The notes under the pieces: generated by a model | Told to the model about the DNA's origin: nothing | Databases searched by the model: none | Seen by the model: only the letters and a program-made list of their open reading frames with translations | Shown here: positions 31,062 through 61,300 of the stretch, piece by piece | Numbering within the stretch: the stretch's first letter is position 1 | How the letters are laid out: the number at the start of each line of letters is the position of its first letter | Program-made: the position numbers and the translations under genes | Origin: Octopus vulgaris | Taxonomy: Eukaryota | NCBI GenBank assembly: GCA_951406725.2 | Contig: OX597839.1 | Location: 806,001-870,000, forward strand | Direction of reading: 5' to 3' | Length of the DNA stretch: 64,000 nucleotides

Positions 31062-31175
31062 TTGATAGGTAAAGTTGCTATTGTTGAAGGTGTAGATATT
31101 ACAGGCGATGTGTTAGTGAAATACGCAAATCATAATAACCGAAAATTGTGCTTAAGTCCGAACGCTCTAAAAAAG
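31062..31175 (+). pseudogene. Exon 3 of MIB-like gene copy A (open frame, but the copy lacks exon 2)
   Basis: ttcAG|114 nt|GTtagt; LIGKVAIVEGVDITGDVLVKYANHNNRKLCLSPNALKK; paralogous to 61187-61300. Confidence 0.8.
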
Positions 31176-31339
31176 GTTAGTATGTGAGGCTATTAAGTCT
31201 CATTCCACTCAGTTCACTCTAGTTTCTGTTTCAAGTTTGTTTTTCCATATGACTTAATTGTTTGCTCCCAATTAGACAATCTAGCGTCAACACATTTTAC
31301 TTGGATAAACTTAATTTCACAAGCTTTCCCTGACTTACG

Positions 31340-32085
31340 CCAACCAAGTTTCTTCCTGTTAAGTCCATCAGTTCAACAATATGATTACAAAACTGCGACA
31401 GAAAAATATCTAGATTTCTATATAACTGTTCCAACCCCTTGGAATGTCATCCTCGCTGGAAGAACACCTTTCATCTTGAAACCAAACATGGTAGTTTTTC
31501 TTATAGCGTTGACTTGAGCCACATAAGCTACTCGATGTAGATCTCTCTTATCATCTGATTTTAATTTAAAAGTTCAAAGTGGGCTAAATCTTTCATATCC
31601 CACCAAACAGATAACAACACCTAACGTAGGTGAAGACCCTCTTTAGCCTGAGTGCCGGTGTTTCTCCTTTCTCTACCCACTATCTTCGGCGCTTGATATT
31701 TTTATAGAGAACTCATTTCTCATTACCAGTCATTATTCGGTTCAAAAAATTCCATTCGTGAAACTTGACAGCACAGAAGAGCTCACATTCACTCTCCGCG
31801 AGCGATCAGACTCTGAAATTTACGAGGACTTCATTGACCCAATTTCATGACTTTTCCGATGTTACGCATGTATCGAAGAAAGGCTGAATGAACAAATCCA
31901 AGCTTCTCTGCTAGTTCTTCAACATTTACGGTGGGATTTTGTTCCACAGCGTTTGCAGGATGTTCTCGTCGAGTTCTACAGATCTTCCAGGATGAATCTC
32001 GTCTTCTTGGCTGTAGTTTCCGGATCAGAATTTTAGTAGATGCAATTGAAAAAACCGCAGTATTTATGGGATAACCCAATATATC
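31340..32085 (-). mobile_element. mariner (DD34D-type) relic (duplicate at ~61430-62178)
   Basis: [58 protein letters not shown] terminal sequence. Confidence 0.8.
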
Positions 32086-33951
32086 AACGTACATAACACA
32101 CACATATATATATATATATATATATATATATATATATATATATATATATATATATATATATATATATATATACACACACACACACACACGCATATCTATA
32201 CGCGTATAGCGTGCTGTTTATCATTTATGCAGTCATCAAAATTGTTATAATGTCTTGTTGAGATAGTTTCTCTTTCTTTCCTGATGGGAAGATTACATTA
32301 TTTTACAGTTTATTCCTTTTTTCGATTAGGAAAAGCTTTCGCATAAAAATGATGTGTATAAAAAGAAACACTTTTTACTGAATAAATAGCATGTCGTAAC
32401 CAGAAGAGGATTGCAGAGGAAGAAAATCACATTTTCGTCCTTGGTTTCGCTGTAATTCCGCTTATTAGAGTTAAAAGATTGTTCTTCAATGCATGCTAGA
32501 CCACAGACACAGACACAGACACAGCCAGACAGACAGACAGATACGCACACACACATACACACACACGCACACACACACACACACACACACACACGCACGT
32601 ACACATTTTTATATATAAAAGTTTTATGTATGTGTATATGTGTGTGTGTGTGTGTGTGTGTGTGTGTGTGTGTGTGTGTATCTTGTGTTTTGGGGAGGGT
32701 TATTATGCCAATAATAATAACTGCATGCACTGCTTCACTATCACTTCTTTGTTGCTAAATGCCTAACCAACTAACCAATCAATCGATTGTTTAATGAGCT
32801 GGTTAAAGAATCAATTGGTTGGTTGTTAGTCAAAGTCCTTTCATCGCTCTTCAGTGATATGAATATGTTTGTATCTGCTGCTGCTACTGTAACCCAGCAC
32901 AACTTGCTGCATTTCTCAATCTACCAGCAACTAAACTGGCAACACCACCAAGCTTTGTTGGTGAGTTGGATGGTTTTGTGTGTCTGTCTCCTACGATTTA
33001 GATTCCTAACTACTCCCACATTTTGCGGTGCAGTGTAACCAAAAGCTTATAGTCGTGATTCATATCGATCCCTTCTGGGTATTAGCGCGCGTCTACGATG
33101 AGTCTACGATTAAAAAAAAATTACCATCATTTTTTCCCATTTTTAATGCATTTTTTTGCTATTATATAAGGGATGTAACTCTCTAAAAATGTATTATTAA
33201 ATCTCAGAACGTAAAAAGCTACAGTAACACCCCACCTTTGTGGTTAGCCATATTGAGATGGCTATTATACTTTACATCTCTAAAAAATGCTTATATAGTT
33301 ATTTCCCTTACAAACCCGAGCAACGCCGGGCGATACTGCTAGTGTATATATAAAATTTAAACAAGTATGAGCTAAGAGTGGCCTATGCCATGTTAATGAA
33401 TAGCATAGAGAAATACAGCGTAAATTTATAATTTATTAAAATTATCTCAGCCTCTAGAGCAGTCGTTCCCAACCGATTTTTGGCCATGCCACACCGAATC
33501 ATTACTAAAATCCTGATGTTCCATTGTGATATTTAATTTTTGTTATTCAAAATTTGGTTATTGTTTACAATATTACACGGAAAGTAAATAAAAAATAAAT
33601 AGTTCAACGGATGTAAAAAAAATGTGTAGGAAACGAATATGAAAAAAAAAATGCGCGGAAAGTAACGGGGGAAGGAAAGGACTTTTGAAAATTCGCAAGA
33701 TTTCTGCGCCCCGGCTTTGGATGATCAAAACTTTCAGAAAAATGGATACTTTTAATGAAATTGTCTACGAATATGTGTTATATAATGTAGATTCCAAACA
33801 ATTTTTGGGGGGTGGGGTGGAAAGTGTTTAAGGAGGGGTTGTGCTGGGGAATTTCGGAAAATTCACCGGAGTCCACTTCAATTCCTCTTAGCCTTCAAGA
33901 AAATGTATATCTTTAATGAAATTCTCTAGAGACAGACAGACTGATGTTGTG

Positions 33952-33992
33952 CCTCTGATGAGAACCCAATAAGTTTCGAAAATCGATTAAGG
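33952..33992 (+). ncRNA. Minimal type I hammerhead ribozyme
   Basis: CCU CUGAUGA GAAC-ccaauaa-GUUUC GAA AA-ucga-UU A AGG; palindrome AATCGATT, UUA triplet. Confidence 0.6.
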
Positions 33993-59200: not shown

Positions 59201-60224
59201 TAATCTTGTTACTTTTGATATTCTGGTTACTTATGAAGTATTTTATATATCGTATTATGTGTAGTAATGTTGTTTTTCTTTTGAGTGTTTATGTATGTGG
59301 GAATGTGTGTGTGTGTGTGCGTATTTTGGTTGCGTAATTTATTTATCTGTATGTGTGTGGGTGTGAGAATATTGTTGTATATGTCGAGTTTAGTAGGTAT
59401 GTATATGTATATGGGAGGGGTATACGTATATGTTGTGTGTGGGTGTTTTACGTATGTATATTTGTGTGTGAATGAGTATATGGGTTTGCTATATAGGTGT
59501 AATTGTGTATGGTAGGGGGAGTTTTATCATAATATGTATATGGGTTTCATTTATCATGATCGTTTATTGGTGTTTTGTAGTAGATTCTGTATATTTAAGT
59601 TGATTATATATTATTCCATTTATAATTTTTAAAAAAACGTTCGATCAACATGTGCAAAGAATTATTTATTTTGCTTTTGAGTGTTTATGTATGTGTGAAT
59701 GGGTGTGTGTGTGGGGGGGATTATTTGCGTAATTTATTTATCTGTATAGTTGTGGGTGTGAATATATTGGTGTATATATCGAGTTCTGTATGTTTGTATA
59801 TGTATGTGTGAGCGGGTATACGTATATTGTTTATGAATGTGGGTTGTATGTGTGTGTGAGAGAGTATGAATAAGTATTGTGTTGAAGTATTTGGCTATTT
59901 TATTTATTTATCGTTGCCTAGACGTTTTTATGTGTATGTATAGGGATATATATATATAGGTGTGTGATTTAGTGTATGTATTTAGATATGGTTATATATA
60001 ATTAGTTATATGTGTATGGGTGTATATACAGTTTATTTTTATTTTGTTTTATATTTAATTGTTGATAGGTTTATTTTAGTTTATATATTGTTTATATATT
60101 GATTATATATGGATTATATATAGGTTATATATAGATTATATATTTATATTTTTCATTGATACTTTAATTATTTCAAAATTATTATCTTTTATATTTTAAA
60201 ATATTGATATTTTAGATTGGAAGT

Positions 60225-60267
60225 CCACCTGAAGATTGTCGATCAGGACAAGAAACAATTGTAGTGG
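60225..60267 (+). ncRNA. Minimal type I hammerhead ribozyme
   Basis: CCAC CUGAAGA UUGUC-gaucag-GACAA GAA AC-aauu-GU A GUGG: stems I and II, palindromic stem III, GUA cleavage triplet. Confidence 0.8.
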
Positions 60268-61186
60268 CGGTTTTTTTTACTTTTTATTAAAATTTTATGT
60301 ACTGATTAAGTCTTTCCATTTTTTGTTTTGCAAAATAGTGGTTTTGTCTCTAATTAATATTATATATATATATATATATATATATATATATATATATATC
60401 ATATATATATATATATATATATATATATATATATATATATATATATATCATGTATATATACATATGCATATATATATATATATATATATATATATATGGT
60501 AAAGATTATTTGCCAAATTAATGTGTCAGTCCTGATTAAGACGAATGTTTCTGTTATTTAACCCCAGCTGGTGACGCACTAACCTCGTCCTTATATTTCC
60601 GATCAAGGGAGTTTAGTGTCCCCACCCAACTGTAAAGCTTTAGAGTTGAGCGGGGACATGAAACTCCCTTGTCCGAAAATACAAGGACGTAGTTAGTGCG
60701 TCGAAAGCCAGCTGAAGAGAATGTCTCTTTGGGCTAAATAATAGTAACATTCGTTCTAACCAGGACTGCCATATTATGCTGGTAAATAATCATTACTCTA
60801 GAGTACTGTTACTGAATGTCTCTCGTTCAGAGATTTAGAAATAAGTTTTATATATATATATATATATATATAAGTTTTATATATATATATATATACAACA
60901 CAAACACACGTTCGCACGCACGCACACACACATACACACACACATACACACACATGCACACACACACACATATACACACATACACACACACATATATATA
61001 TATATATATATATATATATATATATATATGTGTGTGTGTGTGTGTATGTGTGTGTGTGTGTGTGCATGTGTGTGTATGTGTGTGTGTATGTGTGTGTGCG
61101 TGCGTGCGAACGTGTGTTTGTGTTGTATGTGTGCGTGCCTATCTATGTATATGTTTGTAATCTTTGTTTAATACATTTATGTTCAG

Positions 61187-61300
61187 TTTATAGGTAAAGT
61201 TGGTATTGTTGAACGTGTAAATGATGGAGGCAATGTGTTAGTGAAATACGCAAATCATAATAACCGAAAATTGTGCTTAAATCCGGACGCTCTGAAGAAG
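61187..61300 (+). CDS. Exon of MIB-like gene copy B (putative exon 3): second half of Mib repeat 1
   Basis: ttcAG|114 nt|GTtagt, phase 0/0, in frame with the 53673 exon. FIGKVGIVERVNDGGNVLVKYANHNNRKLCLNPDALKK matches xGKVGxVxxxxxxGDVxVxY...NPxALxK. Confidence 0.8.

Follow-up and report, generated by a model that had tools for sequence, protein, structure and literature searches.

Mind bomb ligases are usually encoded by one or two conserved genes, with the MZM module responsible for most substrate binding. What, then, is encoded by an octopus locus that carries Mind bomb repeat exons and no MZM exon? The window (the whole stretch analysed: 64,000 nucleotides of Octopus vulgaris, assembly GCA_951406725.2, contig OX597839.1, positions 806,001 to 870,000, forward strand) had received a first-pass annotation in which four short exons were read as Mib (REP) repeat 1 and the start of the next repeat. 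AG/GT borders and compatible phases were verified at all four:

53673..53845, + strand: copy B exon 2, linker and first half of REP1 (173 nt; SH3_15 E 2e-4).
61187..61300, + strand: exon 3 of copy B with the second half of REP1, frame open (114 nt; SH3_15 E 2.7e-4; 38/38 identical to P0001).
31062..31175, + strand: exon 3 of copy A with the second half of REP1, frame open (114 nt; SH3_15 E 0.01; 31/37 identical to O. sinensis P0002).
38101..38202, + strand: exon 4 of copy A with the first half of the REP that follows (102 nt; SH3_15 E 5e-5, stop read as X).

All four translations matched Pfam SH3_15 in the HMMER-type check proposed for them (E 5e-5 to 0.01, 16.6-23.9 bits), each scoring below the 24-bit cut-off because each exon is half a domain. 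A REP HMM built from proteins outside the octopus family recovered all four exons from the same window as a positive control. Tandem REPs, a Mind bomb feature, were also present in P0001, the NCBI O. vulgaris 'MIB2-like' model that matches copy B (87 bits against SH3_15, 2 stretches), and a structural comparison matched the fold to 4tse and 4xi6. Two side-by-side duplicate copies, A and B, of an octopus Mind bomb-related family supply the four exons, and both copies are partly broken. Nothing in the window reached the Rfam gathering score. An AT-rich stretch at 46260-47260, rRNA-like by eye, was dropped, as it matched nothing in Rfam, offered no useful ORF and gave a single weak match of 54 bases to a plasmid.

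MIB_HERC2 or ZZ exons, previously reported as missing between 47617 and 53673, were found on neither strand of the entire 64 kb (tblastn with 7 MZM modules, best E 1.7; MZM HMM, no match at E<10). PF06701 was missing from 7 of 12 matches, all Octopus-labelled, and carried by the other 5. The relatives lacking the MZM module, a Mind bomb feature, were P0001-P0004, P0011, P0153 and P0155, found in three Octopus species; P0001-P0004 have REPs and ankyrins without MIB_HERC2 or ZZ. P0011 (O. bimaculoides) and P0153 (O. sinensis) have a common MZM-less start and 83% identity over the REP region; the loss is therefore conserved and unlikely to reflect one faulty model. O. sinensis P0002 and P0003 are full open models that share 87.5% identity with P0001 across the ankyrins. 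P0004 is missing half-repeats, and the P0155 model is a fusion with a transposon. P0121 has no MZM either; it starts inside REP1, is probably a cut model and was excluded from the family. Full-length P0002 as query gave six proteins with REP among the 150 matches listed (P0002, P0001, P0011, P0109, P0121, P0140), in a search dominated by ankyrin proteins that says little on family range. The ESM Atlas gave no match at 0.9 or above, and the available parts of PMC10970066 and PMC6027868 contain nothing on an octopus MZM-less family.

The six MZM-less proteins with ankyrins clustered together, and MIB2 ancestry was left unsettled by the tree because this clade had support 86/98, below the starred level, and sat in an open fork. 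Over the ankyrin region the nearest MZM-bearing protein was P0156 (56-59% vs 32-47% for others). P0156 has two RINGs, the MIB2 count according to the available text of 10.1101/2024.03.01.582834. Judged from these sequences, the family likely descends from MIB2. That the window holds part of an ordinary MIB2 gene, with MZM exons upstream of it, is very improbable. Exon 2 does start in phase 1, and its linker resembles, weakly and by eye, the post-MZM stretch of full-length proteins. However, the 53 kb leading up to exon 2 contain another gene copy and no MZM exon, the module is missing in all 7 Octopus-labelled relatives, and REP1 is just 30/70 identical to the nearest full-length protein found. 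The ordinary MIB2 fragment that the first-pass annotation had set up as its counter-case is largely refuted by the MZM-free upstream sequence and the MZM-less relatives.

Copy B was then read codon by codon across exon 2:

53708, 53720 and 53729, + strand: ATGs of copy B exon 2, followed by TGA at 53747-53749 and by ATG at 53774 (P0001 start).

The ATGs that exon 2 had been credited with (MESYMEKM) are there, but a start at them is not supported in this sequence: the in-frame TGA at 53747-53749 separates them from the repeat, and they therefore open at most 13 codons. The next ATG, at 53774, falls within repeat 1. P0001 starts there, after the TGA, and its residues 1-62 correspond to 53774-53845 plus 61187-61300 (identity 24/24 and 38/38). 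Copy B has a public gene model and is accordingly not 'cryptic', as the family had been called. P0001 extends copy B past the window end and contains MIB-type ankyrin repeats. It also has an altered GHGEW motif and an early end.

Contigs from 4/4 runs compared (X1, X2, X6 and X18, among 24 listed, over 496 bases of exon 2 and flanks) carried AGA (arginine) instead of TGA at 53747, and stop-free versions of a copy B-type gene therefore exist. The contigs differ from copy B at 3-11 sites and may derive from sister paralogues. The X2 and X6 contigs end at both borders of exon 2 and that of X1 at the donor, which looks spliced; the three carry 42-262 further unplaced letters past the exon borders, their RNA status is a guess, and one exon is covered. 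The X18 contig continues into the intron. Recoding of the TGA, as selenocysteine or otherwise, was set aside, as all four runs have A at that base. The two contigs reaching the exon 2 acceptor begin at 53672 and 53671, and joining of a CAG-ending exon would give 53670, a weak hint against direct joining of a CAG-ending exon 1.

A putative first exon and its copies lie upstream:

47380..47843, + strand: putative first exon of copy B (donor 47617) and flanks, from donor score.
3550..22231, + strand: nine orphan copies of the putative 5' end, from blastn/alignment (93.6-100% identity among ten copies).

Of 3671 GT sites, donor 47617 had the highest score, equalled by its nine copies (donors 3821, 6791, 8271, 9758, 10952, 13536, 17540, 20505 and 21997). 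No junction from this putative exon to exon 2 appeared in the contigs compared. Each orphan unit (~460-800 bp) comprises upstream flank, putative exon 1 and the start of intron 1. The unit was not treated as an unrelated repeat, since two copies extend up to 48175 into copy B intron 1. The putative first exon with its flanks (47380..47843) contains no in-frame ATG for the frame of exon 2, and no convincing Met-Gly coding exon in phase 1 turned up in a donor and frame search of the upstream sequence. The N-myristoylation motif is Met-Gly-x-x-x-Ser/Thr at the true start. An MGxxxS start was found at the model starts of P0002, P0003 and P0004, and not in P0001, P0011, P0153 or window exon 2; none was found for copy B in the window. 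MGxxxS also begins P0140, an unrelated MZM-bearing protein.

Copy A was delimited by self-comparison:

24315..33891, + strand: copy A, segmental duplicate of copy B introns 1-3 (47792-64000), self-blastn blocks of 93-94% with indels.
28345..28365, + strand: deletion junction 28354/28355, which took exon 2 out of copy A (467 bp corresponding to 53618-54084; 2-base microhomology).
44396..44436, + strand: putative 41-nt copy A exon encoding the acidic linker between REPs and ankyrins (AG/GT ends, strong donor).

Outside microsatellites, copies A and B differ by 2.0-2.9% substitutions. Copy A is a broken remnant. Its own exon-1 unit is missing at the 24315 join, exon 2 is deleted, and in exon 38101 a TGA (38182-38184) replaces the GxW tryptophan in a reading one codon shorter than the O. 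sinensis relative. An exon for the second half of REP2, expected before 44396, was not found in copy A, and ankyrin exons were found nowhere in the window, so none lie in copy A ahead of copy B. The putative linker exon at 44396..44436 matched family linkers weakly, in low-complexity sequence (E 0.014-0.3). Recent local duplicates beside broken ones are a mark of birth-and-death evolution, and are seen here as copies 2-3% apart in introns, ten 5' ends, stops and deletions. Candidates for intact or expressed members are the open O. sinensis models and the exon-bounded AGA contigs of X1, X2 and X6 (one exon, RNA status guessed). The proposal of a locally amplified MZM-less REP family under birth-and-death was supported by the coexistence of broken and open copies and by the 7 MZM-less relatives.

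The REP1 exons were compared between copies. In exon 3, 13/114 sites differ between A and B and 11 of these changes alter a residue, vs 60/2959 differing sites in flanking introns (Fisher p 1.7e-6), a divergence 4-6x that of introns; its immediate surroundings show 0 differences in the 80 nt before and 2 in the 100 nt after. The exon 3 dN/dS was ~1.6, from 11 and 2 changes, and was not significant. In exon 2, all 11 listed variable sites sit in residue-changing codons. Because just 18-22% of the sites in these exons are synonymous, a mostly non-synonymous pattern is expected under neutrality too. Exon-limited gene conversion would likewise raise exon divergence. Codons 10, 12, 13, 14 and 16 of copy B exon 3 match neither copy A nor O. 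sinensis P0002. In a P0002 structure model, which matches the MIB1 REP/ankyrin structures 4tse, 4xi6 and 8v0e, these five codons map to a strand end and hairpin loop (residues 67-73).

These data bear on whether the subgroup P0001-P0004 is neutral duplication debris, that is, transcribed decaying copies of one functional MZM-less gene, shuffled by conversion. Both window copies are damaged, nine 5' ends are orphaned, the exon 3 dN/dS is not significantly >1, and decay would also account for P0001 (altered GHGEW, early end), P0004 (missing half-repeats) and P0155 (transposon fusion). We nevertheless consider it unlikely: contigs of 4/4 runs compared lack the exon 2 stop, P0002 and P0003 are open in O. 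sinensis at 87.5% identity to P0001 over ankyrins, and the 4-6x divergence of exon 3 over introns is not given by plain decay.

RING counts were 0, 1, 0 and 0 in P0001-P0004 vs 2 in P0011 and P0153. The terminal coiled-coil RING, a Mind bomb feature, was present in P0011 and P0153 and missing in 4/4 subgroup models, of which P0001 and P0004 look truncated; the copy B 3' end is beyond the window. The single RING of P0002 (intact C3HC4, 40 bits, above the Pfam cut-off) aligns to the first, not the terminal, RING, and the isoforms P0002 and P0003 end in three identical residues where the terminal RING exon would join. In human MIB1, ubiquitin is transferred only by the terminal ccRING3, and the non-terminal RINGs were inactive with UbcH5B (10.1101/2024.03.01.582834, available text).

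Working copies might be active E3 ligases of altered specificity, with REP selecting the substrate and the retained first RING, or a missed terminal RING, transferring ubiquitin. We rate this as somewhat unlikely. It draws on the coiled coil and both RINGs kept by the parent type P0011/P0153, on the intact RING of P0002, and on the position beyond the window of the copy B 3' end, where RING exons would sit. It is opposed by the shared three-residue end of P0002 and P0003 and by the inactivity of the equivalent MIB1 RINGs, although the C3HC4 RING of P0002 could work with another E2. The available sections of two further sources also speak against it: most fly Mib1 activity resides in the MZM (PMC11887331), and the MZM is necessary and sufficient for MIB2-RIPK1 binding (PMC5912950).

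Our preferred reading, held with moderate confidence, is a MIB2-derived MZM-less family whose working versions are predicted to be REP-ankyrin decoys or adaptors and not full ligases. A MIB2 duplicate would have lost the MZM and gained a third REP, giving the P0011/P0153 type with both RINGs kept. A daughter lineage (P0001-P0004) would then have dropped repeats along with the coiled-coil RING and gained MGxxxS starts that would permit N-myristoylation and membrane tethering, and would be undergoing tandem copying and loss. Target tails are predicted to be gripped by REP alone, and the proteins may compete with full-length Mind bomb for these substrate tails, or act as scaffolds, without ubiquitination. 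The REP1 hairpin loop may be changing fast, as expected if the partner changes. A bolder form of the decoy reading, which we think quite doubtful, is that octopuses evolved dominant-negative decoys of Mind bomb in nature. Such proteins would be myristoylated, combine REPs with ankyrins but lack both the MZM and the catalytic RING, and be tandemly amplified, with diversifying selection on the REP1 hairpin; they would tune Notch or death-receptor signalling in competition with MIB1/MIB2, or be bait for MIB2-targeting pathogen proteins.

Across Octopus species a conserved MZM-less gene is retained, and a stripped-down derivative of it is being amplified. The proteins would be natural reagents for what REP binds and does alone, in an animal of wide neurodevelopmental interest. 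The genes already carry automatic 'MIB2-like' names, and the window locus consists mostly of damaged copies. The damage to both copies, the candidate linker exon at 44396, the terminal RING loss, the MGxxxS starts and the excess of amino-acid changes in REP1 had been overlooked in the first-pass annotation.

Compared with MIB2 (skeletrophin), the family is alike in its tandem SH3_15 REPs, acidic linker, MIB-type ankyrins (56-59% to P0156) and, in some octopus members, C3HC4 RINGs. It is unlike MIB2 in having no MZM, a REP count of 2-3, subgroup models without the terminal coiled-coil RING, MGxxxS starts in 3/4 subgroup models, and tandem amplification with broken copies. Human MIB1 (4tse, 4xi6, 8v0e) matches in REP and ankyrin sequence and fold, but has the MZM and three RINGs and is more distant (35-38% to MIB1-like P0159). 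Engineered Drosophila Mib1 without MZM or without RING has the same domain losses, and both forms are described as dominant negative: in the available text of PMC11887331 the MZM deletion acts in a REP-dependent manner and was too harmful for a stock to be kept, and the RING deletion is reported as such in work cited in 10.1101/2024.03.01.582834. These are laboratory constructs, and the MZM deletion kept its RINGs (PMC11887331), whereas the octopus subgroup models have both losses. C. elegans MIB-1 shares only ankyrins and RING with human MIB1 in the available part of a review (PMC11843878) and, from that domain listing, may be a precedent for N-terminal loss; MZM and REP are named there for the human protein only, and the worm gene is single-copy and keeps its RINGs. 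A further close system is P0011/P0153 (auto-named MIB2/MIB2-like at NCBI), which like the window genes has no MZM and falls in the same clade. Among its three repeats, REP1 is the best match to window exons 2-3 (31/70 vs 22-24/68). P0011/P0153 differs from the subgroup in having three REPs and both RINGs, in lacking Gly2 and in its shorter branches, and it appears to be the conserved parent of the subgroup in the window.

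The window consisted of AT-rich animal DNA with microsatellites and LINE fragments throughout. Four exons with AG/GT ends and compatible phases were present where the first-pass annotation had placed them, and each matched the Pfam profile SH3_15, the REP repeat of Mind bomb, on the expected profile half (16.6–23.9 bits, below the 24-bit cut-off set for a whole protein).

31062–31175, forward strand: copy A, exon 3; SH3_15 profile positions 34–66
38101–38202, forward strand: copy A, exon 4; SH3_15 profile positions 1–28
53673–53845, forward strand: copy B, exon 2; SH3_15 profile positions 4–30
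61187–61300, forward strand: copy B, exon 3; SH3_15 profile positions 34–67

Over a stretch of 62 residues, the coding exons were identical to P0001, an Octopus vulgaris model named 'E3 ubiquitin-protein ligase MIB2-like'. The locus is therefore octopus and, with copy B covered by an automatic public model, the gene is not 'cryptic' as first described. The proposed lack of exons for the MZM (MIB_HERC2-ZZ-MIB_HERC2) was borne out: seven modules taken from full-length Mind bomb proteins were searched against six frames of the window (best tblastn E 1.7; no HMM match at E<10), and as a positive control a REP HMM built without octopus-family proteins recovered 4/4 exons. No ankyrin or RING exon was found in the 64-kb window. 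An ordinary MIB2 fragment, which would carry upstream MZM exons, is very improbable.

Three protein searches, in which exact shared words were needed, gave the best 3 of 5, 4 of 458 and 12 of 1476 candidates. Among the 12 matches listed, seven were Octopus-labelled, all without MIB_HERC2, and the other five, including mussel, amphipod and hydrozoan proteins, carried it; MZM-less forms may also exist outside octopus, since such searches find only proteins sharing exact words. P0011 (O. bimaculoides) and P0153 (O. sinensis) had three REPs, ankyrins, two RINGs and a common short N-terminal start. A tree was built from 13 ankyrin regions, P0154 and P0155 having no ankyrins to contribute; in it, the six MZM-less proteins with ankyrins formed one clade (support 86/98), and P0001–P0004 a subgroup with longer branches (100/100). 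The MZM-bearing protein closest by identity (P0156, 56–59%) has two RINGs like MIB2 and sits at an open fork in the tree, so that MIB2 ancestry of the family is graded as likely rather than firm. P0001, P0004 and P0155 share one value for the length of their longest contig, in keeping with a local cluster. P0155 is an O. vulgaris model fusing a transposase-like part with family REP exons. REP number also varies elsewhere: P0154 has an MZM and four REPs with no ankyrins in 628 residues, and P0140 an MZM, three REPs and an MGxxxS start. An ESM Atlas query (P0002, residues 1–170) gave, as a lead only, a cluster of short phage proteins at the low score of 0.81, 29% of them with SH3_15.

The terminal coiled-coil RING was absent in 4/4 subgroup models; the single RING of P0002, an O. 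sinensis isoform, aligned to the first RING. P0002 as modelled by AlphaFold (mean pLDDT 74.9) matched MIB1 ankyrin and REP structures (8v0e, 4tse, 4xi6). In the cited parts of the literature, MZM and REP of MIB1 bind two separate boxes of Notch-ligand tails, and in flies most activity comes from the MZM, deletion of which gives a REP-dependent dominant negative (PMC11887331). Ubiquitin transfer by MIB1 is described as due to the terminal ccRING3 only, homologous to the second RING of MIB2, with RING deletions cited as dominant negative (10.1101/2024.03.01.582834); the MZM of MIB2 is reported as necessary and sufficient for RIPK1 binding (PMC5912950), and MIB2 as bound and inhibited by a viral protein (PMC12330714). 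Drawing on these MZM, REP and RING results, intact subgroup proteins would bind through REP alone and, where the catalytic RING is lacking, would act as decoys or adaptors, a reading with about an even chance. A retargeted active ligase is less likely for the subgroup; for the presumed two-RING parent type (P0011/P0153) it is the better reading.

A start of copy B at the exon-2 ATGs (MESYMEKM), as first suggested, could not be upheld: an in-frame TGA (53747–53749) separates them from repeat 1, and P0001 starts at 53774, downstream of it. Contigs from 4 of 24 listed runs were compared over 496 bases around exon 2.

53672–53845: X2 contig; 3 differences, unaligned ends of 86 and 83 letters
53671–53845: X6 contig; 10 differences
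53728–53845: X1 contig; 11 differences
53668–53887: X18 contig; the same 3 differences as X2, continuing into the intron

Base 53747 was A, giving AGA (Arg), in a contig from 4/4 runs. Residues from the listed X1 differences were those of P0002, so at least three versions of exon 2 exist; the X2/X18 version may be allelic to copy B or belong to a close paralogue. The X1, X2 and X6 contigs behave like spliced RNA, the RNA status of the runs being a guess. The X2 and X6 alignments started 1–2 bases ahead of exon 2, where a direct join to the CAG-ending exon with donor 47617 predicts three, a weak hint of a further exon between them. P0002, P0003 and P0004 start with MGxxxS, which we take to be a myristoylation-type motif; copy B exon 2 has Ala at the Gly position, and no coding exon with an MGxxxS-type start was found upstream of it in the window. 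Exon 2 is closely followed by a short high-copy SINE-like repeat (53945–54085), and the edge of the copy A deletion coincides with the 3' end of this repeat.

The donor of the putative first exon (47617) scored highest among 3671 GT sites. Its unit occurred in ten copies (nine at 3.5–22.2 kb; identity 93.6–100%), two extending into intron 1 up to the equivalent of 48175; the units resemble multiplied, truncated copies of the gene's 5' end. Units with donors 6791 and 8271 were identical across ~420 bases. A higher-order duplication (1–8617 vs 13892–22376, period ~13.7–13.9 kb, 93–95% identity) overlies these 1.2–3 kb units, and a 169-bp tandem repeat (4864–5305, 18588–19029) rich in GACGTCA and CCAAT, presumably CRE- and CCAAT-box-like, lies ~1 kb behind two first-exon copies. 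Immediately ahead of copy B's putative first exon, 46016–47385 is very AT-rich (GC 0.24 over 46001–48000) and flanked by ~120-bp inverted repeats (46114–46231 vs 47385–47265), with pieces of its ends also at 3224–3592, 16949–17308, 55936–56139 and 60278–60500; a by-eye likeness of its interior to organellar rRNA found no support in Rfam, ORF or plasmid comparisons.

Copy A, starting at 24315, arose by duplication with copy B (intron substitutions 2.0–2.9%) and is now a remnant. Its exon 2 is gone through a 467-bp deletion, exon 4 contains a TGA and lacks one codon, and no exon was found for the second half of the exon-4 repeat, nor any ankyrin exon after its last candidate exon:

44396–44436, forward strand: copy A, candidate linker exon, 41 nt

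A reverse-transcriptase LINE fragment lies in intron 1 of both copies (48999–50611 and 25520–27030; RVT_1 E 2e-12, 49355–50608), and its insertion therefore preceded duplication. Copy B alone has a second LINE-like coding fragment within an ATCT microsatellite (51800–53000, first part without Pfam match) and, inserted in intron 2, a 1.5-kb inverted repeat with strong GC skew (55930–60497; 55930–57430 vs 60497–58990, 96%) enclosing an inner one (57801–58642 vs 59498–58644). At 39534–40121 a 107-bp unit is repeated in tandem 5.5 times (96% matches).

Between copies, exon 3 differed at 13/114 bases and the aligned unmasked flanking introns at 60/2959 (p 1.7e-6), with 11 residue-altering changes at ~89 such sites and 2 silent changes at ~25; for the silent changes there was no significant departure from the intron rate (p 0.09–0.16), and dN/dS within the exon was ~1.6, not significant. 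Five neighbouring copy B codons, unlike both copy A and P0002, map to a predicted hairpin loop. Some intron bins near exon 3 were also elevated (up to 10/114 next to an indel), and gene conversion confined to the exon, with another paralogue as donor, would produce a comparable pattern. Neutral debris would suit copy A and the copy B TGA, and sits less easily with the arginine codon in all runs compared; as an account of the subgroup it is unlikely, and the decoy or adaptor reading is kept for intact subgroup proteins.

No description of this family was found among the listings of full-text literature, mostly openly available papers; an SH3_15 expansion could be within gene-family tables of cephalopod genome papers. 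C. elegans MIB-1 is described in the cited part of a review as having only ankyrin and RING domains in common with human MIB1 (PMC11843878), maybe a precedent for N-terminal loss, yet with REP apparently gone too. The family is not a canonical Mind bomb, being without the MZM and, in the subgroup models, without the terminal RING; it is made of Mind bomb parts and, if functional at all, would by analogy act on the same kind of substrate.
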